From NCBI GenBank assembly GCA_050011565.1, contig JBEKIW010000002.1:192001-256000 (forward strand): 64,000 bases of DNA, written 5' to 3'. Of this stretch, positions 11,803-62,392 are shown piece after piece. Source of the stretch: Dehalococcoidia bacterium. Its GTDB lineage: Bacteria; Chloroflexota; Dehalococcoidia; GIF9; UBA5629. The notes below the pieces were generated by a model, which saw nothing but the letters and a program-made list of their open reading frames with translations, was not told the origin of the DNA and did no database searches. The position numbers and the translations under genes were made by a program. Position 1 is the stretch's first letter; each line of letters starts with the position of its first letter.

Positions 11803-11828
11803 ACTTTTCTCCGTTGATAGTTTATTTT

Positions 11829-11883
11829 CACCCTCACCTTATTCCTCTCTCCCCTGGCGGGAGAGAGTTAGAGTGAGGGGGTG
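11829..11883. repeat. REP-like palindrome (same family as 296-334)
   Basis: caccctcac...ctctctccc ctggc gggagagag...gtgagggggtg between glpK and glpD. Confidence 0.7.
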
Positions 11884-29636: not shown

Positions 29637-31940
29637 ATGGCTAAAGTTGAGACCATAGAATTAGCCCGGATTAGCGTTCGCGGCGTAGTCCAGGGAGTTG
29701 GCTTCAGACCCTTTGTCTTCCAGCTAGCCACAAAGTACGGCCTGAAAGGCTGGGTGTGCAATACTTCGGAAGACGTGAAGATTGAAGTTCAGGGGGATAG
29801 CCGTGACCTGGAGCATTTCGTTTCTGAGCTCCAGTATGATGCGCCGCCGCTAGCCCGTATAGAAAACGTCACAGTTACCCATCACCCAGCGGCAGACTAT
29901 ACCAGGTTTGAGATTCGGCGCAGCGTTGCCGAAGAAGGCAAGTATCAACTGGTGTCTCCGGATATTGCCACATGTCACGCCTGCCTCAAGGAAGTCTTTA
30001 CCCCCGAAAACAGGCGCTATCACTACCCGTTCACCAACTGCACCAACTGCGGGCCGCGCTTCACCATAATAGAGGACATACCTTACGACCGCCCCAAAAC
30101 CACCATGCGCTCTTTCACAATGTGTCCCGACTGCCAGGCAGAGTATGATAATCCGCTGGACCGCCGCTTTCATGCTCAGCCTAACGCCTGCCCCAAATGC
30201 GGACCAAGGCTGGAATTGCTCGACGCCAAAGGGAATCACATCGAAGCCACGGATGTTATCGCCGCTGCCAGCCAGCTTCTTAAACAGGGAAAAATCACGG
30301 CTATCAAGGGTCTGGGCGGCTTCCTTCTGGCTTGCGATGCTACCAGTGAGAAGGCAGTACAGCTTTTGCGACACAGAAAGAGACGTCCTTTCAAACCACT
30401 GGCTATAATGGTCTCTGACATAGACGAAGCTAAAAACTATTGCCGGGTATCGGAGGCAGAAGAAAAACTGCTCATGTCGTCGCAGAGCCCCATTGTACTG
30501 CTTCCGTGGAAGTCAGAGTCTACCGTATGCCGGGCCGTAGCCCCGAACCTAAAATATCTCGGTGTGATGCTGCCGTATACCCCCATGCACCACTTGTTGC
30601 TTAGAGAATCGAGATTGCCCCTGGTGATGACCAGCGGCAATATCAGCGAGGAGCCGATTTGTAAGGATAACGATGAAGCTCTCAGACGGCTCCCAGGGAT
30701 TGCTGACTACTTTCTGGTCCATAACCGCGATATATATGCCAGATATGATGACAGCGTAACCGTCGTGGAGAGAGGTGATGTCCAACTCACCCGGCGGGCA
30801 CGGGGCTATGCGCCGTTTCCTGCCCACCTGACTTTTAAAGCCAAAGAGGTACTCGGCTGTGGGGCCGAAGAGAAAAATACATTTTGTTTGACCAAGGACA
30901 ACTACGCTTTCATAAGCCAGCATATCGGCGACATGGAAAACATGGAAACCATGGAGCACTTCGAAAACACGCTGGCTCTGTATAAAAAGCTATTCCGCAT
31001 AGAGCCTGAAATCATTGCCTACGACCTCCATCCCGAATACCTTTCCACTAAATATGCCCTTGAGCTGGGTAGCCAGTCCAGCCATCTTAAGCTGGTCCCG
31101 GTGCAGCACCATCATGCCCACATCGTAAGCTGCATGGCGGACAATAAAATTGAATCTCCGGTTATCGGCGTGGCTCTGGACGGTACCGGCTATGGCAGCG
31201 ATGGACGCATATGGGGTGGTGAGTTTTTAGTCGCGGATTATAAAGGCTTCAAAAGGCTGGGACATTTAGAGTATTTACCCTTACCCGGTGGAGCCGCCGC
31301 TATAAAAAGGCCGTATCGAACCGCCATAGGCTATCTAACCAAGCTGCTGGGGGAAGACTCGCTCAGACCCAGGCTGGCTTTCTTAAAGCTAGTAGACGCT
31401 GTTGAAATCGAGGTTATCAAGCAGCAGCTCCAGGCCGGCCTTAATTCACCGCTGAATTCAAGTATGGGGCGTCTCTTCGATGCCGTTTCCGCCCTGACAG
31501 GAATCAGGGGCGAGATTGACTACGAAGGCCAGGCCGCCGTTGAACTTGAGATGGCAGCTTACGACGGTATCGATAAGGTCGGCGATAAAGGTTATCCATA
31601 TTCCATAATCGACGGTGACGGTGTAAACATCATACAGCTTAAGGAGCTGTTCTCAGCCATAGTCGAAGATTTATTTCAGGGCGTGTCTAAAGCCGCGATA
31701 TCAGTGAAGTTTCACAACACCGTAGCTCATATTATATTTGACATGTGCCAATTGATAGCTAAGAAGACCGGCATCAACCAGGTAGCCTTAAGCGGCGGCG
31801 TTTTCCAGAACCGGCTGCTATTCAGGAAGGTTGTACCGCTGATTGAATCGGCTGGCTTTTCCGTGCTGGTCCATAAGCAAGTACCGTGCAATGACGGCGG
31901 CATTTCTTTAGGCCAGGCTGTAATCGCTAATTTCAGTTGA
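29637..31940 (+). CDS. hypF: Carbamoyltransferase HypF
   Basis: GVVQGVGFRPF, CTNCGPRF, RRFHAQPNAC, QHHHA, PCNDGGISLGQ. Confidence 0.97.
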   Translation: MAKVETIELARISVRGVVQGVGFRPFVFQLATKYGLKGWVCNTSEDVKIEVQGDSRDLEHFVSELQYDAPPLARIENVTVTHHPAADYTRFEIRRSVAEEGKYQLVSPDIATCHACLKEVFTPENRRYHYPFTNCTNCGPRFTIIEDIPYDRPKTTMRSFTMCPDCQAEYDNPLDRRFHAQPNACPKCGPRLELLDAKGNHIEATDVIAAASQLLKQGKITAIKGLGGFLLACDATSEKAVQLLRHRKRRPFKPLAIMVSDIDEAKNYCRVSEAEEKLLMSSQSPIVLLPWKSESTVCRAVAPNLKYLGVMLPYTPMHHLLLRESRLPLVMTSGNISEEPICKDNDEALRRLPGIADYFLVHNRDIYARYDDSVTVVERGDVQLTRRARGYAPFPAHLTFKAKEVLGCGAEEKNTFCLTKDNYAFISQHIGDMENMETMEHFENTLALYKKLFRIEPEIIAYDLHPEYLSTKYALELGSQSSHLKLVPVQHHHAHIVSCMADNKIESPVIGVALDGTGYGSDGRIWGGEFLVADYKGFKRLGHLEYLPLPGGAAAIKRPYRTAIGYLTKLLGEDSLRPRLAFLKLVDAVEIEVIKQQLQAGLNSPLNSSMGRLFDAVSALTGIRGEIDYEGQAAVELEMAAYDGIDKVGDKGYPYSIIDGDGVNIIQLKELFSAIVEDLFQGVSKAAISVKFHNTVAHIIFDMCQLIAKKTGINQVALSGGVFQNRLLFRKVVPLIESAGFSVLVHKQVPCNDGGISLGQAVIANFS

Positions 31941-31951
31941 GGGGAAAAATT

Positions 31952-32179
31952 ATGTGTCTAGCTGTTCCGGTAAAGGTTGTTTCAATAGAGGGTAACGAAG
32001 CCGAGGTGGAAATCGGCGGTGTAAGACGTCGCGTCAGTATAGTACTCACTCCGGAAGCCAAGGTCGGTGACTACGTCCTGCTCCACACCGGCTACGCCAT
32101 AAACGTCGTCAATGAAGCTGAAGCGCAAGAGACCCTGAAGATCTTAGAAGAGATGGCAAGTTTAGATGAAGTTCATTGA
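31952..32179 (+). CDS. hypC: Hydrogenase chaperone HypC
   Basis: MCLAVP, VGDYVLLHTGYAI. Confidence 0.97.
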   Translation: MCLAVPVKVVSIEGNEAEVEIGGVRRRVSIVLTPEAKVGDYVLLHTGYAINVVNEAEAQETLKILEEMASLDEVH

Positions 32180-33251
32180 CGAATTCCGTGATGTCGAGCT
32201 GGCAAAAAAGCTGGTAAACAGGATAAAACAGCTATCGACCAGACCGACCAGATTGATGGAGTTCTGCGGCGGCCATACCGTTTCCATCATGAGGAGCGGT
32301 CTACGCCAGCTACTGCCGCCCACCGTCGAAATGCTCTCCGGCCCGGGCTGCCCGGTATGCGTTACGGCCAATGCCGACATCGACAAGTCTATTGCTCTGG
32401 CCAGTCTGCCGGATGTCATCATCACTACCTTCGGCGATATGATGAAAGTGCCCGGCAGCTACTCCAGCCTGCAGCAAGCCAGAGCCACAGAAGCGGATAT
32501 ACGCATCGTATATTCCACTCAGGACGCGCTACAAATCGCCAGAGACAACCCGACGCAGTCCGTCATCTTTATCGGCATCGGCTTCGAGACCACTGCCCCG
32601 ACCATTGCCGCTTCTATACTTCAGGCGGAAAATGAAGGAATCAAAAACTACTATGTCCTTTGCCTGTCCAAACTGTGCCCGCCGATAATGAAAGCTCTGC
32701 TTGATTTGGGTGAGCTCAAGCTGGACGGCATAATCTGTCCCGGACATGTCAGCGTTATAATCGGCTCCCGCCCTTATGAATTCATACCCCGCGAATACGG
32801 CGTTGCCTGCGTCGTCTCCGGCTTCGAGCCGCTGGACATACTGCTCTCAGTAGAGATGCTGGTAGAGCAAATCGAAAGCGGCAAGCCAAAGGTGGAGATA
32901 GCCTATCGACGTGGTGTAAAGCCTGAAGGTAACAAAACGGCATTGGAGTTGATGGATCGCGTTTTTGAAGTTGACAGCGCCGACTGGCGGGGCATAGGTG
33001 TGGTGCCGGCCAGCGGGTTAAAGATAAGGAAAAAATTCGAGCGCTTCGATGCCGAGCAAGCTTTCTCAATAACCCTGGAGCCCGTCCGAGAGGCAAAGGG
33101 ATGTATCTGCGGCGATATACTGCGCGGCGTAAAGATACCAATCGACTGCAAGCTATTCCGCAAGGCCTGTACACCGGAACACCCGGTCGGGCCCTGCATG
33201 GTATCTTCCGAAGGTTCCTGCGCCGCTTATTATCAATATGAAACTGTTTAG
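32166..33251 (+). CDS. hypD: Hydrogenase maturation protein HypD
   Basis: MEFCGGHT, GPGCPVC, GFETTAP, PGHVS, GPCMVSSEGSCAA. Confidence 0.97.
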   Translation: MKFIDEFRDVELAKKLVNRIKQLSTRPTRLMEFCGGHTVSIMRSGLRQLLPPTVEMLSGPGCPVCVTANADIDKSIALASLPDVIITTFGDMMKVPGSYSSLQQARATEADIRIVYSTQDALQIARDNPTQSVIFIGIGFETTAPTIAASILQAENEGIKNYYVLCLSKLCPPIMKALLDLGELKLDGIICPGHVSVIIGSRPYEFIPREYGVACVVSGFEPLDILLSVEMLVEQIESGKPKVEIAYRRGVKPEGNKTALELMDRVFEVDSADWRGIGVVPASGLKIRKKFERFDAEQAFSITLEPVREAKGCICGDILRGVKIPIDCKLFRKACTPEHPVGPCMVSSEGSCAAYYQYETV

Positions 33252-33253
33252 CA

Positions 33254-33298
33254 ACCTCACCCCCTTAATCTCCCCCTCCTTTGTAAGGAGAGGGAGAA
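33254..33298. repeat. REP-like palindrome
   Basis: cctcaccccc...ctccccctcct ttgta aggagagggag between hypD and hypE. Confidence 0.6.
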
Positions 33299-33350
33299 GA
33301 GTGGACTGGACCTGTCCATACATGTCTTAGTATCAATACGGGACTGAATA

Positions 33351-34358
33351 ATGAATGATGAAACCATCTTGCTGGCCCACGGCAGCGGCAGCCGGCTAAG
33401 TCACGACCTGATTGAGAAAAATTTCCTGCCGCCGCTAACTAATCCGCTATTAGCCAGGCTGGATGATTCGGCGGTTTTCGACCTCAGCGGTCGCCTCGCC
33501 TTCACCACCGACAGCTACGTGGTCAGCCCTATCTTCTTCCCCGGCGGCGATATCGGCAAGCTGGCTGTCTGCGGTACCGTCAACGACTTATCTATGAGCG
33601 GAGCTGCGCCGCTTTACTTGAGCCTGTCCTTCATAATAGAAGAAGGCTTAACAATTGGCAAACTGAAAAAGGTGGTCGGTTCCATAAAAGCAGCGGCTGA
33701 AGAAGCCGGCGTAAATATAGTCACCGGCGATACCAAGGTGGTAAACCGCGGCAGCGCCGATAAGCTGTTCATCAACACCTCCGGCATCGGCATCATCCCT
33801 GAAGGCGTAGATATATCCGGGGCTAATGCCAAATTGGGAGATAAAATTATCCTCAGCGGCACCATCGGCGACCACGGCATTGCCGTGATGAGCCAGCGAG
33901 AAGGGCTCAAGTTCTCAGTGCCCGTCCAAAGCGATTGCGCCCCGCTTAACAAACTGGTGTCGCAGATGCTTGAAGCCTCGCGACGTATTCACTGCCTGCG
34001 TGACCCAACCCGAGGCGGCTTAGCCACGACGCTTAATGAATTCGCCAGGCAGTCTGGAGTCGGCATCAGGATAGAAGAGGAGAAGATTCCGGTGCTCGAT
34101 GCTGTTCGAGCCGCCTGCGAGCTTCTCGGTTTCGACCCGCTGTATGTGGCCAATGAAGGCAAGCTCGTGGCTATAGTGGCGCCAAACGATGCTGGGAAAA
34201 TTCTGGCCAGGATGAAGCGGAATAAGTATGGCGCCGACGCTGCCGTCATCGGCGAGGTAACCGATGAGCATAAAGGCAAGGTCATATTGAAGACGCGGCT
34301 TGGTGCCTCCCGCATCGTCGACATGTTAAGCGGCGAACTGCTGCCCCGCATTTGCTAA
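33351..34358 (+). CDS. hypE: Hydrogenase maturation protein HypE
   Basis: LAHGSG, TTDSYVV, GTVNDL, TGDTKVV, RDPTRGG, C-terminal PRIC. Confidence 0.97.
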   Translation: MNDETILLAHGSGSRLSHDLIEKNFLPPLTNPLLARLDDSAVFDLSGRLAFTTDSYVVSPIFFPGGDIGKLAVCGTVNDLSMSGAAPLYLSLSFIIEEGLTIGKLKKVVGSIKAAAEEAGVNIVTGDTKVVNRGSADKLFINTSGIGIIPEGVDISGANAKLGDKIILSGTIGDHGIAVMSQREGLKFSVPVQSDCAPLNKLVSQMLEASRRIHCLRDPTRGGLATTLNEFARQSGVGIRIEEEKIPVLDAVRAACELLGFDPLYVANEGKLVAIVAPNDAGKILARMKRNKYGADAAVIGEVTDEHKGKVILKTRLGASRIVDMLSGELLPRIC

Positions 34359-34690: not shown

Positions 34691-36781
34691 TCACACGCTC
34701 TTCTGCGCTTTAGTGCCAGTCTTGGTAGCGGCGGCGCCGTAGAATCTATACATATCCCGACCCTGCTCCTTAGCCCGGTACATGGCGGTGTCGGCATTCT
34801 TCAATAAGATTTCAATATCCTTTCCATCCTCAGGGTAAACAGCAATGCCGATGCTGGTCGTAATATTGAGCTGGTGACCATCGAAAACAAGTGGCTCTCG
34901 AAAGACATCCAAGATTCTTTGGGCTAACCTGGAAGCATTGGCCGGCTGGCAGACTTGTGGTAGCACCAAAACGAACTCGTCTCCACCGATACGGGCAATC
35001 GTATCGCTCTTACGAGTAACACTTGTCAATCGCTCGGCAACGGCTTTCAGCAACTGGTCACCGACACCATGTCCCAGAGTATCATTAATAGTCTTAAATT
35101 TATCCAAATCGAGCATCAATACAGCCAATCTGTTACCACTGCGCCGTGATAGAGCCAATCCCATGGTAAGACGGTCGCTCAACAATGTTCTGTTAGGCAG
35201 GCCGGTCAGCGAGTCATGTGTGGCCATTTCAGCAATCTTTTGCTCGTACTGCTTATGTTCGGTAACGTCACGGCTGACCGCCCGGAATCCGACAATCTTC
35301 CCCGCCTTGTCCCGCAAAGGAGAAACCGAATTTTCTACGAACATCTGCGTTCCGTCCTTTCTAACGGTGGCAAAAGGATATGATTTCAGCGGCTCGCCTG
35401 TCCGATAGACTTTATTCCAGGCCTTATATACGCTCTTTAAATCCTCTTTGAGCACGTAAGCTCGATAGTTCGTTCCGATTAACTCTTCCTCGGAGTATCC
35501 GAATTGACGACAAGCTGATTTATTGACAAAATTGATATTACCGGCTAGGTCCAGCTCATAGTAGCCTTCCTCTATCTCCTCCAGTATGGATCGATATTTC
35601 TCCTCCGACTGTCTTAAAGCTTCCTCCATCCGCACACGCTCGGTAACATCATGGCTGACTCCACGAAAACCGACTATCTCGCCTTTCTCGTTTCGCATGG
35701 GGAAAGCCGATATTTCAGCGAATCCATGGCTACCGTCTTTTCTAACGAAAGTGGAACTAATGGCTTTGATTGGCTGACCGGTACGGTAAAGCTTCTTATA
35801 CTCTTCATAAATTTTTTGGGATTCTTCAGGCGTGTGGATGGCTCTGGAGTTCATACCTATCAGCTCTTCCATGGTATATCCCAAGCTGCGGCATAAAGCA
35901 TCGTTTACGAAGGTGTAGTTGCCGGCCAGGTCGTTTTCATAGTAATCATCGTGTATCTCATCCATTATGGTGCGGTATCGCTCCTCGGACTTTCTTAAAG
36001 CTTCCTCCATCTGCACACGTTCGGTAACATCATGGCTGACTCCACGAAAGCCTACTATCTCACCTTTCTCGTTTCGCATGGGGAAAGCCGATAGTTCACC
36101 AACTCCGTAACTGCCATCTTTGCGAACGAATTTGGTGGTAAGGGCTTTGATTGGCTGACCTGTACGATAAACCTGGTTAAAGGTCTTATAAATTCTTTCG
36201 ACATCATCACTGGCGTTGGTGACCTTATAGTTCATACCTATCAGCTCTTCCGCGGTATATGCCACGCTACGGCAGAAGGCATCATTTACGAAGGTGTAAT
36301 TGCCAGCCAGGTCAACTTCAAAATAATCATCATGCGTCTCGTCCATGATAGTCCGGTATCTCTCCTCTGACTTGGCTAAGGTCTCTTCCGACTGCTTGCG
36401 TTCGGTGATATCCATAAAGCTTCCCACGGCGGACCGCTTTCCACTATACTCAGTTGAGGTCAACCTCTCCAGAACCCAAATTACCCCGCCGTCCTTTTTT
36501 AGGAATCTGTACTCATAGGGAAAGGAACTTCCACCCTTTAAGCTGTCTATTGCCTTTTTCCTGACTATTTCTCTATCCTCGGGATGAACCAGGTCGAGAG
36601 GATACACACCTAGAAGTTCCGGTTCTGTATAGCCCGTTAGCTCCTGGAATAGTGAGTTAACATACTGAAATCTTCCGTCCTGGATAATATAAATCCCTGT
36701 GCCGGCACACCGCATTAACGCTTGCGCCAGCTCTTCAGAGCCATTCATCCTGGATTTGTTTTGTTTAACCGTCTTTTCCAC
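34691..36781 (-). CDS. Four-PAS diguanylate cyclase
   Basis: Four PAS/PAC repeats; HDSLTGLPNR, DLDKFKTINDTLGH, RKSD I-site, GGDEF. Confidence 0.94.
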   Translation of the reverse strand: MEKTVKQNKSRMNGSEELAQALMRCAGTGIYIIQDGRFQYVNSLFQELTGYTEPELLGVYPLDLVHPEDREIVRKKAIDSLKGGSSFPYEYRFLKKDGGVIWVLERLTSTEYSGKRSAVGSFMDITERKQSEETLAKSEERYRTIMDETHDDYFEVDLAGNYTFVNDAFCRSVAYTAEELIGMNYKVTNASDDVERIYKTFNQVYRTGQPIKALTTKFVRKDGSYGVGELSAFPMRNEKGEIVGFRGVSHDVTERVQMEEALRKSEERYRTIMDEIHDDYYENDLAGNYTFVNDALCRSLGYTMEELIGMNSRAIHTPEESQKIYEEYKKLYRTGQPIKAISSTFVRKDGSHGFAEISAFPMRNEKGEIVGFRGVSHDVTERVRMEEALRQSEEKYRSILEEIEEGYYELDLAGNINFVNKSACRQFGYSEEELIGTNYRAYVLKEDLKSVYKAWNKVYRTGEPLKSYPFATVRKDGTQMFVENSVSPLRDKAGKIVGFRAVSRDVTEHKQYEQKIAEMATHDSLTGLPNRTLLSDRLTMGLALSRRSGNRLAVLMLDLDKFKTINDTLGHGVGDQLLKAVAERLTSVTRKSDTIARIGGDEFVLVLPQVCQPANASRLAQRILDVFREPLVFDGHQLNITTSIGIAVYPEDGKDIEILLKNADTAMYRAKEQGRDMYRFYGAAATKTGTKAQKSV

Positions 36782-37045
36782 TTACGTTATCTCAACAATC
36801 TTTCCATAACTTATCGCTAGATACACTTAATATAGTATATCGCCTACCAGAGCTATAAGTGAATAGCCTATAGGTAATTTTATGTCTAGTAAAAAGGTAC
36901 TACCGACTAAGCTCTGGAGGTAGCCAAACCATAATTTGTATCGTGACTCTTGCAGTCATTTTTTAATCACTCGGCCTATTTGCAATGATAGTTATAAACG
37001 TGTAGAATTTGCGATTGGCAGTTCTTGGCAAAGAAAGGGGGTCAA

Positions 37046-37942
37046 ATGCCTAAGGCAAACGTTCAAGAAATTCCGCTTGTCTGGATACAAGCAGGCACCT
37101 GCACCGGATGCTCAGTCTCAGTCCTCAATTCAGTCAGCCCGACCATCAAGAATGTCCTTATAGATGAAATTATCCCTGGTAAACACCTAAACCTGAAATT
37201 CCAGGCAACCGTAATGGCCGGCGAAGGGGACGCCGTAATTAAGGTGCTGGAAAATACGCCAAAGACAAATAAAGGTGGCTATGTCCTAATAGTCGAAGGC
37301 GCCATCCCCACCAAGGATGGCGGTGCTTATGGGTCACTTGGTGAGAAAAACGACAAACCGGTGCCCATGGCAGAGAGAGTAGAAGCATTAGCCAGGGATG
37401 CCCTGGCAATCGTGGCACTGGGCACCTGCGCTACCTTCGGCGGTATAGCTGCCGGCAAGCCTAATCCCGGTGGCTATGTGGGTGCGGAAAAATTCCTTAA
37501 ATCCCGCAATATAAACAAGCCGTTGATTAATATCGCCGGCTGTCCACCCCACCCCGATTGGTTCATAGGCAGCGTCGCCTCCGTACTGCTTCTCGGTTTG
37601 CCCAAGCCGGAAGACCTGGACGAGCTTAAACGTCCCAAGGTCTTCTATGGCAATTTAATCCACGAAAATTGCCCCAGAAGAGCCTACTTCGATGAAGGAA
37701 AATTTGCTAAAAAGTTCGGCGAACCGGGCTGCCTCAATGAGCTGGGCTGTAAGGGACCGGTTACGCATGCCGATTGCCCGCTGAGGAAGTGGAATCACGG
37801 AACAAACTGGTGCATCGATGCCGGTTCGCCGTGCATCGGCTGCTGTGAGCCCGGATTTCCCGATCTGGTGGCTCCCGTCTATCAGAAATTAAGCGATGCC
37901 AACATGCCCATGATAGGTAAACTCCCGGGAAAGGAGAAATAG
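37046..37942 (+). CDS. [NiFe]-hydrogenase small subunit, group 1a/HysB-like, no Tat signal
   Basis: RBS aaggggg; CTGCS, GTCATFGG, GCPPHP, HENC, CLNELGCKGP, WCIDAGSPCIGC (Cys at medial site, i.e. [4Fe-4S]). Confidence 0.92.
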   Translation: MPKANVQEIPLVWIQAGTCTGCSVSVLNSVSPTIKNVLIDEIIPGKHLNLKFQATVMAGEGDAVIKVLENTPKTNKGGYVLIVEGAIPTKDGGAYGSLGEKNDKPVPMAERVEALARDALAIVALGTCATFGGIAAGKPNPGGYVGAEKFLKSRNINKPLINIAGCPPHPDWFIGSVASVLLLGLPKPEDLDELKRPKVFYGNLIHENCPRRAYFDEGKFAKKFGEPGCLNELGCKGPVTHADCPLRKWNHGTNWCIDAGSPCIGCCEPGFPDLVAPVYQKLSDANMPMIGKLPGKEK

Positions 37943-37945
37943 AAA

Positions 37946-39505
37946 TTGAGCAAGATTGTTGTTGACCCGGTCACCCGCCTCGAAGGTCACTATAAGGTTG
38001 AAGTTGTCACCGATAAAGGCGTGGTCAAAGAAGCTCACAGTTCAGGCATGATGTTCCGTGGCCTCGAAATAATACTCCGGGGAAGAGACCCGCGCGATGC
38101 CCAAATGTATACACAGCGTATCTGTGGAGTCTGCCCTACCAGCCATTCCACGGCTGCCACGCTTAACCTCGACAGCGCTTTCGGTCTCGCCGATAAGATA
38201 CCCGACAACGGACGTATTATCCGTAACCTCATATTGGGAGCGGCGCATGTTTCCGACCACATTCTTCACTTCTATCACCTGGCAGCTCTCGATTACGTGG
38301 ATGTTACCAAGATACTCAAATACGAGGGCAATGACCCAAGTTTGAACTCTGTCAAGGAATTTGCCCAGCGAGGAGAGCTGGCTCCATTTGTACCTCGATA
38401 TGAAGGTGACTACCGCTTAAGCGATAAGGTGAATATAGGCGCACTGGCTCATTATATTCAAGCTCTGGAGATGAGACGCAAGGGTCAGGAGATGCTGGTT
38501 ATCTTCGGCGGCAAGATGCCTCATAATATGGCTATCGTCCCCGGCGGAGTTACTTCAACCGTCACCGTGGATAAAATAGCCTCTTTCCTGTGGATGCTCA
38601 ATGAGCTCAGGGATTTCGTCGATAATGTTTATATTCCCGACGTCCTGGCCGTGGCCGAAGCCTATGCCGACTATTTCGAAATCGGCGCCGGCTGCGGCAA
38701 TCTACTGTCTTACGGAAGCTTCGACCTCGAAGGTAATAATCCCGATTACACCAAGAGGAAGAGGCTTATGAAGCAGGGGACGGTTTCAACTGACCTTAAG
38801 CTCGGTGCTCTAGACCCGAACAAGATTATGGAATATGTAAAGCATTCCTGGTATGCCGATTCCAGCACCGGCAAGCACCCGTCAAAAGGCGCGACGGAGC
38901 CTCAACTGGAAAAGAAAGGCGCCTACACCTGGGTGAAAGCTCCGCGATACGACGGCAAGGTATATGAAGTCGGCCCGCTGGCCCGTATAGCAGCTAGTTA
39001 TGCCGACGGAGAGCCAACGGTTAAAACGCTGGTCGACTCTGTTCTTTCGAAGTTTAAGGCCAGCCCCAAGGCTTTATTCTCAGTGCTCGGTCGCCATGCC
39101 GCCCGTGCCCTCTATACCAAGTTTCTGGCTGATACAATGCCCGGGTGGCTGCTCCAGCTAAAGCCGGGTGAGCCGGCTTACATAGACTACACCATACCCG
39201 ACGAAGCCTTTGGAATGGGATTAGTTGATGGTGCCAGAGGTGCTCTGGGGCACTGGATTGAGATAAAGGATAAGAAAATTGCCAATTACCAGTGCGTGGT
39301 GCCAAGCACCTGGAATATGTCGCCGAAAGACGACAACGGACAGCCCGGACCGGTAGAACAAGCCCTTATCGGCACCAAGATAAAGGATGAAAATAATCCT
39401 TTTGAGATCGGTCGCATTATCCGCTCCTTCGACCCCTGTCTGGCTTGCGCCATTCATGTTATTACGCCCAAAGGAAAAACTCTTGGAATATACAAAGTCA
39501 GTTGA
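37946..39505 (+). CDS. [NiFe]-hydrogenase large subunit, group 1a/HysA-like (Cys form)
   Basis: DPVTRLEGH, L1 RICGVCPTSH, HILHFYHL, ARGALGHW, L2 SFDPCLACAIH plus cleavable tail. Confidence 0.94.
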   Translation: MSKIVVDPVTRLEGHYKVEVVTDKGVVKEAHSSGMMFRGLEIILRGRDPRDAQMYTQRICGVCPTSHSTAATLNLDSAFGLADKIPDNGRIIRNLILGAAHVSDHILHFYHLAALDYVDVTKILKYEGNDPSLNSVKEFAQRGELAPFVPRYEGDYRLSDKVNIGALAHYIQALEMRRKGQEMLVIFGGKMPHNMAIVPGGVTSTVTVDKIASFLWMLNELRDFVDNVYIPDVLAVAEAYADYFEIGAGCGNLLSYGSFDLEGNNPDYTKRKRLMKQGTVSTDLKLGALDPNKIMEYVKHSWYADSSTGKHPSKGATEPQLEKKGAYTWVKAPRYDGKVYEVGPLARIAASYADGEPTVKTLVDSVLSKFKASPKALFSVLGRHAARALYTKFLADTMPGWLLQLKPGEPAYIDYTIPDEAFGMGLVDGARGALGHWIEIKDKKIANYQCVVPSTWNMSPKDDNGQPGPVEQALIGTKIKDENNPFEIGRIIRSFDPCLACAIHVITPKGKTLGIYKVS

Positions 39506-40001
39506 GACACGAACGCGTCATAGCAGCCCGAGAATCACCATTCTGGGCATCGGCAACCTGCTACTCAAAGACGAAGGTATAGGCGTCCACCTGGTTCAAA
39601 AACTGGCTGGCGTTGTAGACAACGCTAATGTCAATATAATCGACGCCGGCACTTATCCCGACTTTCTGTCTCTGGTAGATGACAATTTAGACAAATTAAT
39701 CATTGTAGACGCTGTTAAAACCGGAGATAGGCCGGGAACTATATATCGATTCGGCTCCGATGACCTAGATTTAGATTCCACGCTGCCGGTTTCGGCACAC
39801 GATATGGGCGTATTAGATAGTCTAAAAACGATGGCTTTACTCAATAGACAGCCAAAATCAACAGTCATTATCGGCATCGAGCCCAGGACCATAGACTTCG
39901 GGCTTGACCTTTCCCCGGAAATTGAAGATAAACTACCCAAAATTATTAGTTTAGTTCTCAAGGAGATAGAGGAAACCACAGCTATGGAGGTAGACAAATG
40001 A
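39483..40001 (+). CDS. Hydrogenase maturation endopeptidase (HyaD/HybD family)
   Basis: ILGIGNLLLKDEGIGV, IIDAGT, IIVDAV, SAHD; probable TTG start after aagga. Confidence 0.92.
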   Translation: MEYTKSVETRTRHSSPRITILGIGNLLLKDEGIGVHLVQKLAGVVDNANVNIIDAGTYPDFLSLVDDNLDKLIIVDAVKTGDRPGTIYRFGSDDLDLDSTLPVSAHDMGVLDSLKTMALLNRQPKSTVIIGIEPRTIDFGLDLSPEIEDKLPKIISLVLKEIEETTAMEVDK

Positions 40002-40684
40002 TAATCTCTGAATTAAAGCCGCTTCCGGAAATCTTAGGTTATTTAGACAAGGACAAGAAAATCTTTATAGCCGGCTGCAAAGGTTGTGCCGAGGTCTGCC
40101 AGACGGGGGATGAGCCTCAGGTCCTCGACATGAAACAGAAACTGGAGCAAGAAGGCAAGACAGTCACCGGCCACTGCGTTGTCGATTTCCTGTGTGATAA
40201 AGCTCTAATCAAGACCAGGCTGTTTCCCCATGAGGATGAGATAGATGCTGCCGATTCTCTGCTGGTAATGACCTGCGGTATCGGAGTCCAGGCAACAGCG
40301 GCTGTGGTGAACAAACTGGTACATCCGGCGGCTAACACCATCAATGTCGGCGGTGCCGGTGGGACGTGGCGGGGCAGCGAGCGCTGCCGTGAATGCGGCG
40401 ACTGCGTGCTGGATTTAACCGGTGGCATTTGCCCCTTGACTGCCTGCACCAAATGGCTCGTCAACGGACCTTGCGGCGGTGCTAAAAATGGCAAGTGTGA
40501 GGTTGAACCCGATGTACGTGACTGCGGCTGGCACCTTATTTACGAAAGGCTGAAAAAATTGGGCCAGTTGGACAAAATGCGAACAATCATGCCGGTGGTC
40601 AAGAACTACAGCAAAATGCAACCGCCGAAGGCGCTAAGGTCCACCATAATGTGGGCGCTGGAGCAGCAAGAAACAAAAGTTTAG
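39998..40684 (+). CDS. metV: Methylene-THF reductase Fe-S/Zn subunit MetV
   Basis: GCKGCAEVC, MTCGIG, CRECGDC...ICPLTACTK...NGPCGG...CEV...CGW; 4-nt overlap with protease gene. Confidence 0.92.
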   Translation: MIISELKPLPEILGYLDKDKKIFIAGCKGCAEVCQTGDEPQVLDMKQKLEQEGKTVTGHCVVDFLCDKALIKTRLFPHEDEIDAADSLLVMTCGIGVQATAAVVNKLVHPAANTINVGGAGGTWRGSERCRECGDCVLDLTGGICPLTACTKWLVNGPCGGAKNGKCEVEPDVRDCGWHLIYERLKKLGQLDKMRTIMPVVKNYSKMQPPKALRSTIMWALEQQETKV

Positions 40685-40710
40685 CTATCCTTAAAGGAGG
40701 TAAACAGAGA

Positions 40711-41577
40711 ATGAGTCTGCGTGAAAAACTTCAGAACGGCAAGTTTATAGTCACCGCTGAAATCGGCCCGGCTAAAGGTGTAGACATACACGAGTTCAAC
40801 GAGAATGCCGACTTGCTTAAAAGCAGAGTAGATGCGGTTAATTGTACCGACCAGCAGAGTGCTGTAATGAGATTGGGGTCACTTGCCGCCTGCTACCTGC
40901 TCAAACAAAAAGGCGTCGAGCCTGTGTTCCAGATGACCTGCCGGGACCGCAACCGCATCGCACTGCAGTCAGACTTACTTAGCGCTTACGTTATGGGTGT
41001 TGAAAATGTTCTGTGTCTTACCGGAGACTATGTCACCTTAGGAGACCATCCTGACGCCAAACCTGTCTTCGACCTCGATTCCGTTTCCTTACTGTATGCC
41101 GCCCGACAATTAGAACAGGGCAAAGACCTTGCCGGCAAGGAGCTAAAAGGCACACCTAAATTCTTCCTCGGCGCCTGCGTCACTCCCGGTGCCGACCCTG
41201 TGGAACCGCAGCTTATCAAAATGGAGAGAAAGGTAAAGGCCGGTGCCCAGTTCTTCCAGACCCAGGCCATCTACGAGCCAAAAACCTTCGAAGCCTTCAT
41301 GAAAGAAGCTAAGAAATTCGGCGTGCCGATTTTAGTCGGTATCGTGGTGCTAAGGTCAGCCGGTATGGCCAAATTTATGAATAAAAACGTTGCCGGCATA
41401 CATGTCCCCGATGAGCTTATCAACGAGATGGACAAAGCCGAGAACAAATTGCAGAAGGGCGTAGAGATAGCCGCCCGCTTAATCAATGAGATGAAGGGCA
41501 TGTGCCAGGGGGCTCATATCATGGCTATCGGCCTGGAATCGAAGGTGCCTGCAATTCTCGATGCCGCTAAGTTATAA
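40711..41577 (+). CDS. metF: Methylenetetrahydrofolate reductase
   Basis: RBS aaggagg; VTAEIGP, QMTCRDRNRIALQS, LTGD, GAQFFQTQ, GAHIM. Confidence 0.95.
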   Translation: MSLREKLQNGKFIVTAEIGPAKGVDIHEFNENADLLKSRVDAVNCTDQQSAVMRLGSLAACYLLKQKGVEPVFQMTCRDRNRIALQSDLLSAYVMGVENVLCLTGDYVTLGDHPDAKPVFDLDSVSLLYAARQLEQGKDLAGKELKGTPKFFLGACVTPGADPVEPQLIKMERKVKAGAQFFQTQAIYEPKTFEAFMKEAKKFGVPILVGIVVLRSAGMAKFMNKNVAGIHVPDELINEMDKAENKLQKGVEIAARLINEMKGMCQGAHIMAIGLESKVPAILDAAKL

Positions 41578-41592: not shown

Positions 41593-42369
41593 GTGCGCAT
41601 CGTTCGCTTTGTGGCCTGGGGGCGAGCTAAGTACGGTATATTAGCCCGCAACACCATACGCGGACTCCGCGGCAGCCCTTTCTCTCACTTTCAGTATCTA
41701 AATAGCCCATCTATATTTGACGGCAGCACTTACACGCTGGATAAGGTCAGATTGCTTCCCCCGTGCCTTCCCTCAAAGATTGTCTGCCTGGGATTGAATT
41801 ATCGCAGCCACATCGAGGAGATGAAACTGCCTATGCCGTCAGTGCCGCTCATCTTCCTTAAGCCCTCCACCGCAGTTATCGGCCCCGACGACAAAATCAT
41901 ACTGCCCCGCGGCTGGAAACGCATCGACTATGAAGGCGAGCTGGGTGTAGTTATCGGCAAAAAGGCAAAGGATGTTCCAGAAGGGGAAGCAAAGGAATAT
42001 GTGCTGGGCTACACTTGTTTTAACGATGTATCCGACCGACATGCCCAGGCGAATGATGGCCAGTGGACCAGAGCTAAAGGCTATGACACCTTCGCCCCAA
42101 TAGGTCCGTGGATAGAGACGGAGGCCGATCCGGACAATCTGAAACTTGAGACTTACCTTAACAGCGAGCTGCGCCAGTCAGCTTCTACCAGCGACCTGCT
42201 TTTCGGAATATCTACGCTTATTAATTTTATTTCCGGTATTATGACGCTGCTCCCCGGCGATGTCATTGCCACAGGCACGCCATCAGGCGTCAGCCCGCTA
42301 AAGCCGGGCGACATGGTTGAAGTCAGAATAGAAAACATCGGCACGCTGAAAAATTTTGTAGCCATCTAA
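41593..42369 (+). CDS. Fumarylacetoacetate hydrolase family protein
   Basis: KIVCLGLNY, FLKP, DYEGEL, NDVS, KGYDTF, GDVIATGTPSG. Confidence 0.92.
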   Translation: MRIVRFVAWGRAKYGILARNTIRGLRGSPFSHFQYLNSPSIFDGSTYTLDKVRLLPPCLPSKIVCLGLNYRSHIEEMKLPMPSVPLIFLKPSTAVIGPDDKIILPRGWKRIDYEGELGVVIGKKAKDVPEGEAKEYVLGYTCFNDVSDRHAQANDGQWTRAKGYDTFAPIGPWIETEADPDNLKLETYLNSELRQSASTSDLLFGISTLINFISGIMTLLPGDVIATGTPSGVSPLKPGDMVEVRIENIGTLKNFVAI

Positions 42370-42451
42370 AAGTAACCAGTTCACGCTATGTTCTGCTCCA
42401 TGACACCTGATATACTTATCCTTTGGACGGCGAACCACAGATAGTCGGAGG

Positions 42452-43108
42452 TTGGATATGAACTTAACTTTAATTGAGGCGCTGACTATTGGAGATGCCT
42501 GGTTCCAGTGTCTGGAAAAGGCTCTGGTAGAAGGCAGGACATATCGTATACAGCAGGGCAGTTTCGAGGGTACACATCGGAAAGAAATACCTCTAGTCGC
42601 TATCATAATTCGCAACCCTGGCGTCAGACCATTGAGACCTGATGTACCCATGGGGGTGCCGGCACCTACGACGGATGAGGTCATCCACGACTATATGTCA
42701 TATTTGATGACCGGTGCCAAACAGGAGAATGAAGAGTACACCTATGGCGAGGACCTGGCGCCACAAATCGATGAGGTAATCAAGCGCTATAAGCGGGGAG
42801 TGGATACCAACCAGATGTGCATGACGATCGGCAACAGGAAAAGCATTAAGTTAAAAGACCCGCCGTGTTTAAGAGTGGTGGACACCCGCGTTCAGGACGG
42901 CCAGCTCAATTTCGTTCTTTACTTCAGGAGCTGGGATTTATGGGGTGGCTTCCCTACCAATATGGGCGGATTGCAAATGCTGAAAGAATATATGGCCGAG
43001 GAGATCGGTGTAAAAGATGGCTCCCTTATTGCCTTCAGTAAAGGGCTTCATTTATACGAGCATTGCTGGGACCTGGCCAAAATGGTACTGCATATGCCAC
43101 CGGAATGA
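42452..43108 (+). CDS. thyA: Thymidylate synthase, short (archaeal-like) ThyA
   Basis: YTYG, DPPCLR (catalytic Cys), YFRSWD, PTN, LHLYE; only about 216 aa. Confidence 0.8.
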   Translation: MDMNLTLIEALTIGDAWFQCLEKALVEGRTYRIQQGSFEGTHRKEIPLVAIIIRNPGVRPLRPDVPMGVPAPTTDEVIHDYMSYLMTGAKQENEEYTYGEDLAPQIDEVIKRYKRGVDTNQMCMTIGNRKSIKLKDPPCLRVVDTRVQDGQLNFVLYFRSWDLWGGFPTNMGGLQMLKEYMAEEIGVKDGSLIAFSKGLHLYEHCWDLAKMVLHMPPE

Positions 43109-43186
43109 ACAATCTAGCTTAATCTTCGGCTGGTAAATTCCACATTACAGCAGTTAGCGAACAGGATTCTAGGGTACCAAGGAAAA

Positions 43187-43768
43187 ATGCCGGAAGGTCA
43201 TTTCGATACGAATAGGGCACCGATTCTCGACAGTGAAGAACGTATCAAAGAGCTGAGACCTTACCAACTCCTCAAGGACACGGCCGGAGTTACTTCCGGC
43301 ATGACCTGCATAGACCTCGGCTGCGGTACCGGAACTTTTTCCTTCCCTATGCTTCTCTGCGTCGGCAGTGAAGGTGTTGTCTATGCCATTGATGACAGTG
43401 CTGAAATGCTGGAGCATATTCGAGCCAAGAATCCGCCGCCAAATCTGATACTGGTTCATGGCGATGTCAGCCAAACGGGGCTTGATAATGAGATTGCCGA
43501 TTTTTGTCTTCTGGCTTTCATCATGCACGAAGTCGAACAGCCGGCTAATCTCCTGGCCGAGGTATTTCGCCTGCTTAAGCCTGAAGGCAGGCTTTTAGTA
43601 ATAGAGTGGAAAGCCGATTTAGATTCGCCAGGCCCTCCACAAAGTAGGCGTCTATACAGAGAAACCGTTGACCAGCTTTTCAAGCAGGCGGATTTACGCG
43701 ATTTCGAATACATCGACTGGTCCAAGAACCACTACGTGACAACGGGCAGCAAAATGAGAACCGATTAG
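43187..43768 (+). CDS. Class I SAM-dependent methyltransferase
   Basis: IDLGCGTG, VYAID, RLLKPEG. Confidence 0.9.
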   Translation: MPEGHFDTNRAPILDSEERIKELRPYQLLKDTAGVTSGMTCIDLGCGTGTFSFPMLLCVGSEGVVYAIDDSAEMLEHIRAKNPPPNLILVHGDVSQTGLDNEIADFCLLAFIMHEVEQPANLLAEVFRLLKPEGRLLVIEWKADLDSPGPPQSRRLYRETVDQLFKQADLRDFEYIDWSKNHYVTTGSKMRTD

Positions 43769-59297: not shown

Positions 59298-59786
59298 TTA
59301 CTGCTTTTCTGGCGGCTCCTGGCTTACTGGTTTAATTGTCACCAGCACTTCCTCGACCTTCGGAGGCGTCATCCTGGGATAGACGGAGTCGCTGACTACC
59401 ACGACCGGAGCCAGGGCACAGCAGCCGACGCAGGCTACTCTGTCCAGGCTGAACTCTTGGTCCGGCGTAATGCCACCTACCTGTATATCGAGCTCCCTGG
59501 ACATAGCCTCGAGTACCAGCCTGCCGCCGGCCAAATGACAGGCGGTGCCCATACAGACTTTTACGGGGTGCTTGCCCAGAGGTGTGAAGCGGAACAGATT
59601 ATAAAAAGTAGCGATGCCGTACACCGTGCTCTCCGGAATTTCCAGAAAGTCGGCGATGGCCAGCATCGCCTCTTTTGAAATATAGCCTAGCTTATGTTGA
59701 ACTTGCTGAAGAAGGGAGATTAAATGGCGTCTATCCTTCTTTCTTTTTATAAGGATGTCTGCCAGATCCTGGTTCAGTTCTGCCAC
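59298..59786 (-). CDS. HydC/NuoE-like [2Fe-2S] subunit
   Basis: YGIATFY, VCMGTACH, ACVGCCALAP; 13-nt overlap with acsC. Confidence 0.93.
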   Translation of the reverse strand: MAELNQDLADILIKRKKDRRHLISLLQQVQHKLGYISKEAMLAIADFLEIPESTVYGIATFYNLFRFTPLGKHPVKVCMGTACHLAGGRLVLEAMSRELDIQVGGITPDQEFSLDRVACVGCCALAPVVVVSDSVYPRMTPPKVEEVLVTIKPVSQEPPEKQ

Positions 59787-61141: not shown

Positions 61142-61161
61142 TGAAATCCTCCTAGCTCATT

Positions 61162-62388: not shown

Positions 62389-62392
62389 TCTA

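Follow-up and report, generated by a model that had tools for sequence, protein, structure and literature searches.

The window analysed here comprises 64,000 nucleotides of a Dehalococcoidia genome, and all coordinates refer to it. Open reading frames and family scans place five genes head to tail on one strand, encoding the small and large subunits of a [NiFe] hydrogenase, a maturation protease, MetV and MetF (Table 1). The junctions read from the sequence confirm the contiguous run without an internal terminator described by the initial annotation: a 3-nt gap separates the two hydrogenase genes, the protease gene overlaps that of the large subunit by 23 nt when the nearest in-frame start, TTG, is used in place of the alternative ATG, the protease gene shares its last 4 nt with metV, and metF follows metV after 26 nt containing a AAAGGAGG ribosome site. 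A consensus scan found no + strand terminator-like site within 37046–41577, the first ones being located at 43031–43046 and 43569–43592. A promoter-like site lies about 40 nt 5′ of the small-subunit start, and one weak match is present inside the cassette (39369–39397). Overall, the scan gave 11 promoter-like sites against a chance expectation of 7.9 ± 2.9. The junction between protease and metV carries no terminator-like site and only a promoter-like match at chance level. The three genes downstream of metF are probably part of the same transcript here. They are not part of the conserved cassette, as an FAA-hydrolase gene follows metF in only 9/27 metagenome loci, all nine from close kin with a MetF identity of at least 94%. 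The Wood-Ljungdahl genes noted about 18 kb away were identified as cdhD, cdhC and cdhB; a cdhA-like gene is situated just beyond the window end.

Table 1. Genes and sequence features in and around the hydrogenase-metVF cluster
Feature	Position	Strand	Remarks
hypF, hypC, hypD, hypE ([NiFe] cofactor maturation)	29637–34358	+	end 2.7 kb upstream of cassette
PAS-GGDEF diguanylate cyclase gene	34691–36781	divergent	upstream of small subunit; family scan
Promoter-like site (TTGCAA, 17 nt, TAGAAT)	36979–37008	+	consensus scan, 9/12 matches; pattern match only
[NiFe] hydrogenase small subunit	37046–37942	+	298 aa; PF01058 and PF14720
[NiFe] hydrogenase large subunit	37946–39505	+	519 aa; PF00374, 549 bits; NF033181, 722 bits (cut-off 600 bits)
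Hydrogenase maturation endopeptidase (HybD/HycI family)	39483–40001	+	PF01750; start uncertain, TTG 39483 or ATG 39387
MetV	39998–40684	+	228 aa; PF12225, E-value 1e-30
MetF, methylene-tetrahydrofolate reductase catalytic subunit	40711–41577	+	288 aa; PF02219, E-value 4e-36
FAA-hydrolase family gene, thymidylate-synthase-like gene, methyltransferase (in this order)	41593–43768	+	family scans
cdhD, cdhC, cdhB (archaeal-type CO dehydrogenase/acetyl-CoA synthase)	59774–62947	-	18.2 kb downstream of metF

With a PF02219 MetF encoded beside a Cys-rich PF12225 MetV, metVF is a predicted methylene-THF reductase of the MetVF type. MetV possesses a Rossmann-like N-terminal domain with Cys27, 30, 66 and 93, followed by the PF12225 domain with Cys130, 133, 136, 145, 150, 159, 167 and 176; the orthologue alignment shows 11 invariant Cys, with C93 conserved almost throughout, and the structure was predicted with a pLDDT of 79.8. 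The initial annotation had considered that a separate metVF linked to hdr or mvhD might serve the pathway elsewhere. The genome, which is 99.2% complete and contains CODH/ACS, harbors a single metF (its only PF02219 gene), a single metV and a single fhs, and none of its five FlpD/MvhD-like domains is near metVF, all being encoded on different contigs or at a distance of more than 60 kb. The neighbours of metVF are the hydrogenase genes and the FAA-hydrolase gene and include neither hdr nor mvhD, and no RnfC-like domain was found among the cluster genes.

A group 1a-like hydrogenase without Tat leader

The large subunit contains the motifs RICGVCPTSH and DPCLACAIH, the latter with Cys and not Sec, followed by a 13-residue C-terminal extension for protease cleavage. 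In a comparison with the PDB, periplasmic [NiFeSe] enzymes were the best solved relatives of both the large (457 bits) and the small subunit (251 bits), while group 2 and group 3 enzymes scored far below group 1a (205 bits for the solved group 2 enzymes with the large subunit). By its best solved relatives, the assignment as group 1a-like made from the sequence is therefore supported.

Residues 7–279 of the small subunit align to residues 6–280 of the mature 1CC1 small subunit, and its start coincides with the mature N-terminus of this periplasmic protein (1CC1_S). No Tat leader precedes it, the frame being open for just 7 codons 5′ of ATG 37046, and a family scan of the cluster neighbours detected no cytochrome b gene; both features had been noted before and held up. 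A cytochrome c3 gene is likewise missing from the cluster. Unlike its Tat-bearing relatives, the small subunit lacks a C-terminal hydrophobic anchor and carries a hydrophilic tail of 19 residues (280–298) that reaches past the end of the solved periplasmic homologue. Across 32 orthologues, C19, C22, C128, C166, C209, C229, C235, C244, C263 and C266 never vary, and H206 and C256 hardly do; these residues presumably ligate the proximal, medial and distal clusters, following the family pattern. The tail motif L/M-P-x-I/V-G is partly conserved (P288 in 25/32 rows, G291 in 21/32), and several metV-linked small subunits possess short tails without it, a point against the complex proposed below. Lacking leader and anchor, the hydrogenase is probably located in the cytoplasm.

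A hydrogenase without Tat leader next to a divergent PAS-GGDEF gene might also be a regulatory H2 sensor resembling groups 2b/2c, which would act via this gene on metVF expression. The more than twofold higher bit score to group 1a than to the PDB group 2 enzymes and the retention of the maturation protease and all cluster ligands argue against such a role. Among 30 loci, a tblastn search with the GGDEF protein gave no match beyond the own locus, although these loci extend just some 600 nt upstream of the small-subunit gene. We regard a sensor as extremely improbable.

Conservation of the cassette and partner-specific MetV clans

A large-subunit homologue was found in 60 of 401 sampled Dehalococcoidia genomes. 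Apart from the own locus, the order small subunit-large subunit-(protease)-MetV(-MetF) is kept in 28 of the 29 top loci, the single exception being cut by a contig end, and it recurs in six more Dehalococcoidia loci, giving 34 other genomes altogether. In metagenome contigs, metV is present in 55/55 informative loci (54 times directly downstream, once upstream), and the same applies to 18/18 informative loci of a second phylum, so that the synteny asked about in the initial annotation is conserved in relatives. The protease gene lies between large subunit and metV in just 24/54 metagenome loci and is therefore an optional member of the cassette.

The metV linkage is accompanied by a change at both ends of the small subunit. 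A Tat leader is absent from each of the 33 metV-linked small subunits, whereas an RRxF leader is present on 14/14 unlinked homologues, namely 12/12 in the class and two in another Chloroflexota class. In the nine Tat-bearing relatives with 58–63% identity, the C-terminus is a hydrophobic stretch, and in eight of them no other segment is more hydrophobic; such a C-terminal stretch occurs in 0/33 metV-linked proteins. Loss of leader and anchor and linkage to metV hence coincide without exception in the loci examined. The metV-linked and the Tat-exported hydrogenases of Dehalococcoidia fall into one clade (support 99), and the tree points weakly to a single origin of the metV-linked enzymes (support 69).

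Where paralogous MetVF copies occur in genomes with the cassette, they lie directly behind Fdh-like/NuoE/NuoF-GltD genes (11 loci) or HdrA-MvhD genes (10 loci). In the tree, each kind of MetV makes up a clan of its own (support 97, 100 and 99, with 99 for the hydrogenase-linked clan), and MetV thus looks like a partner-specific adaptor. Since most relatives carry 2–5 MetV copies, the pathway may depend mainly on a copy other than the hydrogenase-linked one in these genomes.

Predicted complex of the small subunit and MetV

The initial annotation had suggested that the hydrogenase might exchange electrons directly with MetV, and a structure model restricted to the small subunit and MetV, without the other two subunits, indeed predicts an interface. 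The median score was 0.70 compared with 0.00 for the best control, a mark reached by 58/80 solved complexes and 2/110 mismatched pairs. Agreement between runs was high, with at least 92% of contacts in common and a partner pLDDT of at least 82. No solved MetV homologue was found in a structure search, hence the model did not pass by recalling a solved MetV complex. On the small subunit, the predicted contacts flank the distal-cluster ligands (204, 207, 238–239) and cover the tail (282–294), and on MetV they comprise residues 60–83, 103–106 and 187–189. MetV is thus predicted to dock on the distal-cluster face of the small subunit, and we infer from the model that hydrogenase and MetV would bind physically. 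None of the four findings named in the initial annotation as speaking against its idea turned up.

Alternatively, both enzymes could be co-regulated but separate, with electrons travelling via a diffusible carrier such as ferredoxin. Operon membership alone is no proof of a complex, a trial of the complex test on 44 neighbouring pairs chosen blindly gave just 7 passes, and purified type II MetVF takes reduced ferredoxin in vitro (PMC8760232). These points are countered by the passing model with its controls at zero and by the strict tracking of leader and anchor loss with metV linkage in the loci examined; the hydrogenase-linked MetV clan would likewise be hard to explain without MetV touching its neighbour. 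In addition, a standard group-1-type enzyme is not expected, on thermodynamic grounds, to reduce ferredoxin at environmental H2 levels. Taken together, we consider two separate enzymes quite improbable.

Proposed function and comparison with known systems

The reading that we consider fairly likely is that the five genes encode a soluble cytoplasmic H2:methylene-THF oxidoreductase, in which a group 1a-like hydrogenase serves as the electron-input module of MetVF. H2 would be oxidized at the Ni-Fe site and the electrons would pass along the three iron-sulfur clusters of the small subunit (proximal, medial, distal) to those of MetV, which would sit on the distal-cluster face held by the C-terminal tail of the small subunit. 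From the MetV clusters they would proceed to the flavin of MetF and on to methylene-THF, giving methyl-THF. For the complex, we infer this route of the electrons, their direction and the absence of ion translocation.

We favour a reductive function, in which H2 supplies the methyl branch with electrons, because electron transfer from H2 (E0′ −414 mV) to methylene-THF (E0′ −200 mV; PMC8760232) is exergonic even at low H2. As a counterpoint, a direct link would save no energy at the most exergonic step of the pathway, which seems wasteful for energy-limited anaerobes. The same complex might instead run in reverse, oxidizing methyl-THF and releasing H2 in a syntrophic partnership, where the Wood-Ljungdahl pathway would be reversed to oxidize acetate or methyl groups. 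The capacity of [NiFeSe]-like enzymes to produce H2 well would suit this direction, as would the lack of [FeFe] hydrogenase and RnfD in a Pfam search of the genome. For two syntrophic acetate oxidizers, the [NiFe] hydrogenases encoded next to metF have also been proposed to produce H2 (PMC6295475, PMC10608574). Calculated from the potentials, however, the reverse reaction is strongly endergonic unless H2 falls to the extremely low level of about 0.01 Pa, and the complete forward Wood-Ljungdahl pathway encoded together with AdhE and glycerol catabolism fits a fermenter using the pathway as electron sink. We therefore regard the reversed complex as unlikely.

The driving force of about 214 mV would be large enough for a bifurcating or confurcating unit that recovers energy by involving ferredoxin or NAD(P) as a third substrate beside H2 and methylene-THF. 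For the Hdr-type MetVF complex such bifurcation has been put forward, and it has been discussed for MetVF alone (PMC8760232). In the conserved cassette, however, modules binding ferredoxin, NAD(P) or a further flavin are absent, the only flavin site being that of MetF, which makes such coupling very unlikely.

Going beyond the direct H2-dependent reductase, the cassette may represent a fifth, H2-dependent type of MTHFR, in which a respiratory periplasmic hydrogenase was brought into the cytoplasm by loss of Tat leader and anchor and plugged into the Wood-Ljungdahl pathway via a dedicated MetV. The four- or five-gene cassette would then move between phyla as a unit, and MetV would be a general plug with three partner versions (hydrogenase, HdrA-MvhD and Fdh-NuoEF). 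For this wider scenario we see arguments for and against as evenly balanced. As the cassette encodes the only MTHFR in genomes like this one, the prevailing H2 level would, if the scenario is true, directly govern how reduced the methyl branch is (its redox poise). The initial annotation had not recognised the architecture from described systems, which holds in part: the adjacency of hydrogenase and metVF is already in print, with a sentence or two in each of three genome papers, while our literature searches found no biochemistry on the arrangement.

The periplasmic group 1a [NiFeSe]/[NiFe] hydrogenases of Desulfomicrobium baculatum (1CC1) and Desulfovibrio vulgaris (5JSU, 3ZE6), the best solved relatives of both subunits, share with the cassette the L1/L2 active-site motifs, a three-cluster small subunit and a dedicated endopeptidase. 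They differ from the enzyme described here in having a Tat leader, no 19-residue C-terminal tail and Sec in place of Cys in the active site, and their partner is a periplasmic cytochrome, not the predicted MetV of a putatively cytoplasmic enzyme. Related as well are the Tat-exported, anchored Hup-type hydrogenases of Dehalococcoidia, with large subunits 58–63% identical and of the same clade, which keep RRxF leader and hydrophobic anchor and have no metVF nearby. The Hup-type set includes two genomes (G055, G098) with 21–27 reductive dehalogenase matches.

Among the MTHFRs, type II consists of MetVF alone (Clostridium ljungdahlii, Thermoanaerobacter kivui), i.e. the same two core subunits (PMC8760232, PMC8515935), whereas here the operon also carries the genes of a candidate electron donor. 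The type III enzyme RnfC2-MetVF of Acetobacterium woodii resembles the proposed complex in being soluble and three-part, with a neighbour-encoded donor site, iron-sulfur transfer to MetVF and no energy conservation (PMC8760232); its donor is NADH via RnfC2, and here it would be H2 via a two-subunit [NiFe] hydrogenase. Type IV, MetFV-HdrCBA-MvhD of Moorella thermoacetica, also has MetVF as its core and an iron-sulfur/flavin input module whose genes are adjacent, but takes electrons from NADH via HdrA/MvhD and not from a hydrogenase (PMC8760232), and hdr and mvhD are missing beside metVF here. Relatives of this genome also possess Hdr/MvhD-linked metVF copies. Both RnfC2 and HdrCBA-MvhD, encoded beside metVF, co-purify with MetVF (PMC8760232). 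H2-dependent methylene-THF reduction has been measured in membranes of Sporomusa ovata, which resembles our proposal in donor, acceptor and the use of a group-1-type [NiFe] hydrogenase with MetVF; this hydrogenase is periplasmic, has a cytochrome b and acts via quinone and MvhD/HdrA with proton-motive gain (PMC9430772). In contrast, the soluble complex proposed here would link both partners directly and translocate no ions.

In the hydrogen-dependent CO2 reductase of Acetobacterium woodii, an [FeFe] hydrogenase is joined to formate dehydrogenase for the first step of the pathway. Small iron-sulfur subunits hard-wire the hydrogenase to a Wood-Ljungdahl reductase and thereby bypass soluble carriers. 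The cassette would follow the same design principle at another step, the reduction of methylene-THF.

Gene order around the hydrogenase and metVF

The genome around the window comprises 2.0 Mb in 8 contigs and is 99.2% complete, with the window on contig 2. ORF calls and family scans show that five genes fill the cassette (see table), and the contiguous run with the junctions given in the initial annotation is borne out by the sequence. The genes of the small and large subunit are separated by 3 nt, the start of the protease gene runs into the large-subunit gene (the nearest in-frame TTG at 39483 gives a 23-nt overlap), the protease gene and metV overlap by 4 nt, and the gap of 26 nt between metV and metF contains a strong ribosome site. 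A consensus scan detected no terminator-like site on the plus strand within the block, as had been claimed. The only promoter-like match in the block is weak and lies within the large-subunit gene; 11 promoter-like sites were obtained in total, with 7.9 +/- 2.9 expected by chance. The Wood-Ljungdahl genes noted about 18 kb away are an archaeal-type CODH/ACS set 18 kb downstream.

Features of the cassette and its surroundings, and loci elsewhere (window positions unless a contig is named)
Feature	Position	Strand	Details
Cassette	37046-41577	+	five genes
[NiFe] hydrogenase small subunit	first gene of the cassette	+	298 aa
Large subunit		+	519 aa; NF033181, 722 bits (cut-off 600)
HybD/HycI-type maturation protease	between large-subunit gene and metV	+	
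MetV		+	PF12225
MetF		+	PF02219
hypFCDE	2.7 kb upstream of the cassette		
Thymidylate-synthase-like gene	42452-43108		TIGR03283, 105 bits (below cut-off of 175)
Glycerol kinase, glycerol-3-phosphate dehydrogenase, bifunctional AdhE-type aldehyde/alcohol dehydrogenase	10165-13386 and 25182-27842		
MvhD-like (FlpD) domain	G000:C1:336343-336711 (own genome, outside the window)		one in-frame TGA
Mvh-type hydrogenase	C1:330175-332913 (own genome)		neighbours the FlpD domain
Second MetVF operon, locus L071	G304:C1:309000-322000		
HdrA-MvhD-MetV locus L072	G376:C1:1998000-2011000		

Further neighbors were considered as members of the system. The downstream FAA-hydrolase, ThyA-like and methyltransferase genes were rejected because they are kept in close kin only, and membership of a PAS-GGDEF gene is unsupported, as it matched its own locus only and the upstream flanks of the compared loci are short. 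The thymidylate-synthase-like gene, located two genes past metF in a position kept in close kin only, resembles the methanogen type and is a further enzyme of the methylene-folate pool. Elsewhere in the window, the glycerol and AdhE genes hint at a fermentative lifestyle, possibly with the Wood-Ljungdahl pathway as electron sink.

The own genome contains no separate hdr/mvhD-linked metVF: its single PF02219 and single PF12225 match both lie in the cassette, and all five MvhD-like domains are away from metVF. Three other [NiFe] large subunits, all group-3-like, are likewise away from the cassette. The genome also has one fhs gene as well as CODH/ACS. A Pfam search of it found no RnfD, [FeFe] hydrogenase or reductive dehalogenase; the dehalogenase family gave positive matches in the same run in two other members of the class (G055 and G098). 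The FlpD domain with its in-frame TGA may be a selenoprotein. Possession of a sole MTHFR is not general across Dehalococcoidia, where MetV occurs in 145 of the 401 genomes sampled, many with 2-5 copies. Five further genomes that are 91-100% complete (G179, G276, G279, G316 and G389) each give a single PF12225 match and encode MetV next to the hydrogenase, so that this is probably the sole copy there too.

Linkage to metVF, Tat leader and membrane anchor

At a cut-off of E <= 1e-60, 60 of the 401 sampled Dehalococcoidia genomes harbor a large-subunit homologue. Among the 30 best loci, MetV directly follows the large subunit or protease in 28 of the 29 from other genomes, the lone exception ending at a contig edge. 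Twenty further loci of the class comprise 6 with the same order, 1 that is cut and 13 without metVF; in these 13, one of which is a 2-kb contig, large-subunit identity is 39-63%. The cassette was verified in 35 of the 401 genomes (about 9%), a count that leaves out four partial matches (G200, G223, G298 and G071). JGI metagenome contigs were retrieved with a Tat-less small subunit of 58% identity as query, and 55 of the 80 loci were informative in that the contig continued for at least 1.3 kb beyond the large subunit; metV is present in all 55, directly downstream in 54 and upstream of the small subunit in one. Hence, the synteny is conserved in relatives and the linkage of hydrogenase and MetVF is more than chance. 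Three loci (L185, L184 and L203) show a reversed placement, in which the gene directly before that of a Tat-less small subunit encodes a divergent MetV of 39-42% identity; the metagenome contig L185, the sole one with room, carries a 42%-identical MetF further downstream, past the protease.

The cassette also occurs in Thermodesulfobacteriota, the phylum of a Desulfarculales MAG, in which 22 of 401 sampled genomes (about 5%) encode a large subunit of at least 60% identity and 18 of 20 loci have the order Tat-less small subunit, large subunit, MetV and MetF, the other 2 being cut. For Chloroflexota beyond the class, a sample of 401 genomes contained just one from outside it (G611) whose large subunit reached 60% identity, and this hydrogenase is Tat-bearing and without metVF. 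As a route to cross-phylum cassettes we tried P0140, a Tat-less Bacillota small subunit (43% identical), which belongs to a different hydrogenase kind: MetV or MetF lay near none of the 80 genome_contigs loci retrieved with it, most of which are Tat-bearing.

In agreement with the proposed group 1a-like assignment, both subunits are nearest to solved periplasmic group 1a [NiFeSe]/[NiFe] enzymes. Compared with the mature small subunit of the [NiFeSe] hydrogenase of Desulfomicrobium baculatum (1CC1), residues 7-279 of the small subunit encoded in the window align with residues 6-280, and the window's protein has 19 additional hydrophilic C-terminal residues. Since the protein begins at the mature 1CC1 start and its frame is open just 7 codons upstream, a Tat leader is impossible, in line with its absence stated in the initial annotation. 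The cluster-ligand Cys and His residues are invariant or nearly so in 32 orthologues. No cytochrome or membrane subunit gene lies near the cassette, which confirms the reported absence of a membrane cytochrome b gene.

These features extend to the relatives. The Tat leader is absent in 33/33 metV-linked small subunits with a visible N-terminus, whereas a [ST]RRxF[LIV] leader is found in 12/12 unlinked homologues of the class and 2/2 from a genome belonging to a different class of Chloroflexota. Nine closer Tat-bearing relatives possess a hydrophobic C-terminal stretch, the top hydropathy segment in eight of them, which occurs in none of the 33 linked small subunits. Leader and anchor on the one hand and metVF linkage on the other are mutually exclusive, with no exception among the loci examined. 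Another Tat-less small subunit, C-terminally anchored and from an uncultured bacterium (L074, the P0140 record), has no metVF within 6 kb; therefore, loss of the leader has also occurred elsewhere among hydrogenase lineages, for different reasons. In two Tat-bearing relatives, a single in-frame TGA interrupts the large-subunit gene at an unusual place, near the N-terminal nickel-binding motif (L058, G355:C36) or near residue 160 (L064, G169:C23); the codon could encode selenocysteine, or the gene could be split or misassembled.

In large-subunit trees, the linked forms group with the Tat-bearing forms of Chloroflexota in one clade (support 99); the latter come in part from two genomes that gave 27 and 21 matches to reductive dehalogenases. 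Every outgroup further away has a Tat leader, so that the simplest reading takes the cytoplasmic state as derived. Support for the linked forms having arisen once dropped from 97 with 47 rows to 69 with 72 rows; hence we make no such claim, and a single origin is neither shown nor rejected by these trees. The Thermodesulfobacteriota sequences (L234-L251, phylum of G756) fall at two places inside Dehalococcoidia diversity with support 98-100, a placement that speaks for passage of the entire cassette from one phylum to another and suggests at least two transfers of the hydrogenase-metVF unit; the alternative, mis-binning of 18 MAGs, is unlikely.

Predicted contact between small subunit and MetV

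We built a two-chain model of the small subunit and MetV from 32-row alignments made for this analysis. An interface was predicted with scores of 0.77, 0.70 and 0.67 in three runs, compared with 0.00 for the best of three controls; at least 92% of the contacts were common to the runs and partner pLDDT was at least 82. In the calibration of the method, 58 of 80 solved complexes attained the pass mark, as did 2 of 110 mismatched pairs; this calibration applies only approximately to the alignments used here. Since a sequence profile search found no solved relative of MetV, the model cannot owe its passing score to a known structure of a MetV complex. The MetV model (pLDDT 79.8) had no match in the PDB at E <= 0.001, with generic Rossmann-like similarity only, over residues 1-116.

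On the small subunit, the modelled contacts flank distal-cluster ligands (204, 207, 238-239) and extend over the additional tail (282-294); on MetV, they fall within the Rossmann-like domain at the N-terminus (60-83, 103-106), where the invariant Cys66 is located. The tail motif is only partly conserved and is absent from some linked subunits. Group-specific positions make up 1 of 11 modelled interface residues vs 6 of 258 elsewhere, too few to weigh; E207, A213 and G228 of the small subunit cluster near distal-cluster ligands. Taken as a model, the predicted interface supports binding of the small subunit to MetV.

Proposed electron transfer and comparison with known MTHFR types

Which electron donor MetVF-type methylene-THF reductases use physiologically has long been an open question in the bioenergetics of acetogens; if it were reduced ferredoxin, growth on H2 + CO2 would fail to balance (PMC8760232). 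The earlier proposal that the hydrogenase exchanges electrons directly between H2 and MetV is supported by the comparative and modelling evidence, on which we consider it reasonably likely that the cassette product is a direct H2:methylene-THF oxidoreductase. Electrons would pass from the Ni-Fe site through three small-subunit clusters to the MetV clusters, the MetF flavin and methylene-THF. Such a direct link would conserve no energy at this step and would spare both NADH and reduced ferredoxin.

The E0' of H2 is -414 mV. For the methylene-/methyl-THF couple, it is -200 mV (PMC8760232). From these potentials, reduction of methylene-THF by H2 is exergonic even at low H2 and the reverse, H2-evolving direction requires H2 near 0.01 Pa; we therefore favor the H2-driven reductive direction. 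The H2-evolving direction is the one preferred in papers on syntrophic acetate oxidisers (PMC6295475, PMC10608574), and the enzyme may be reversible.

The initial annotation did not recognize this architecture from described systems. The adjacency has been glimpsed in print in three papers: in Ca. Bipolaricaulia a group 1a HysAB adjoins MetVF and may supply electrons (PMC11287216), and in two haloalkaliphilic syntrophs [NiFe] hydrogenase genes adjoin metF (PMC6295475, PMC10608574), the missing signal peptides being remarked in one of them (PMC10608574). The claim stands insofar as we found no biochemical or systematic study of a direct hydrogenase-MetVF cassette in the literature searched, supplementary files excluded. 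H2-dependent methylene-THF reduction was measured in S. ovata membranes, where the route runs via a periplasmic cytochrome-b hydrogenase, quinone and Hdr/MvhD (PMC9430772). For marine Chloroflexi and Acetothermia, only Hdr-linked metVF has been described (PMC5736913, PMC9586279). If the proposed reading is true, a direct connection between hydrogenase and MetVF would provide a natural answer to the donor question, open to testing, for many uncultured anaerobes, and the four subunits would make a well-defined target for expression and structural studies; the cassette would also illustrate the rewiring of a respiratory enzyme for a cytoplasmic role and alter the modelling of H2 thresholds and carbon fixation in subsurface Chloroflexota.

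We further examined the surroundings of other MetV copies at 23 loci, 20 of which belong to genomes with the cassette. An Fdh-like protein, NuoE and NuoF-GltD precede MetV-MetF in 11, and HdrA-MvhD precedes MetV(-MetF) in 10. MetVs from these other contexts are 34-46% identical to the window MetV, compared with 49-92% for hydrogenase-linked MetVs, and in a 71-row tree the three contexts correspond to three clans: Fdh-NuoEF-linked (support 97), HdrA-MvhD-linked (support 100) and hydrogenase-linked (support 99, 50 rows, both phyla). The first context represents a second recurrent MetVF operon in Dehalococcoidia (L071, L254, L255, L260, L262-L264, L267, L269, L270 and L272), in which a formate-dehydrogenase-like molybdopterin protein, a NuoE-like protein and a 1022-aa NuoF-GltD fusion are followed by MetV and MetF; its product is apparently a methylene-THF reductase linked to formate or NAD(P)H and outside the four published types. 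At L072 and L073, an HdrB-like protein, a 1492-aa HdrA with three flavin/NAD domains and MvhD precede MetV, and tblastn gave no match to metF beside it.

A review of MTHFRs distinguishes four types, with a hydrogenase in none of them, and in two of the known types the module encoded beside metVF co-purifies with MetVF (PMC8760232). The hydrogenase genes hold the same genomic position beside metVF as these known input modules, and the comparative and modelling evidence supports the view that the cassette encodes a MetVF reductase in which a hydrogenase serves as input module.
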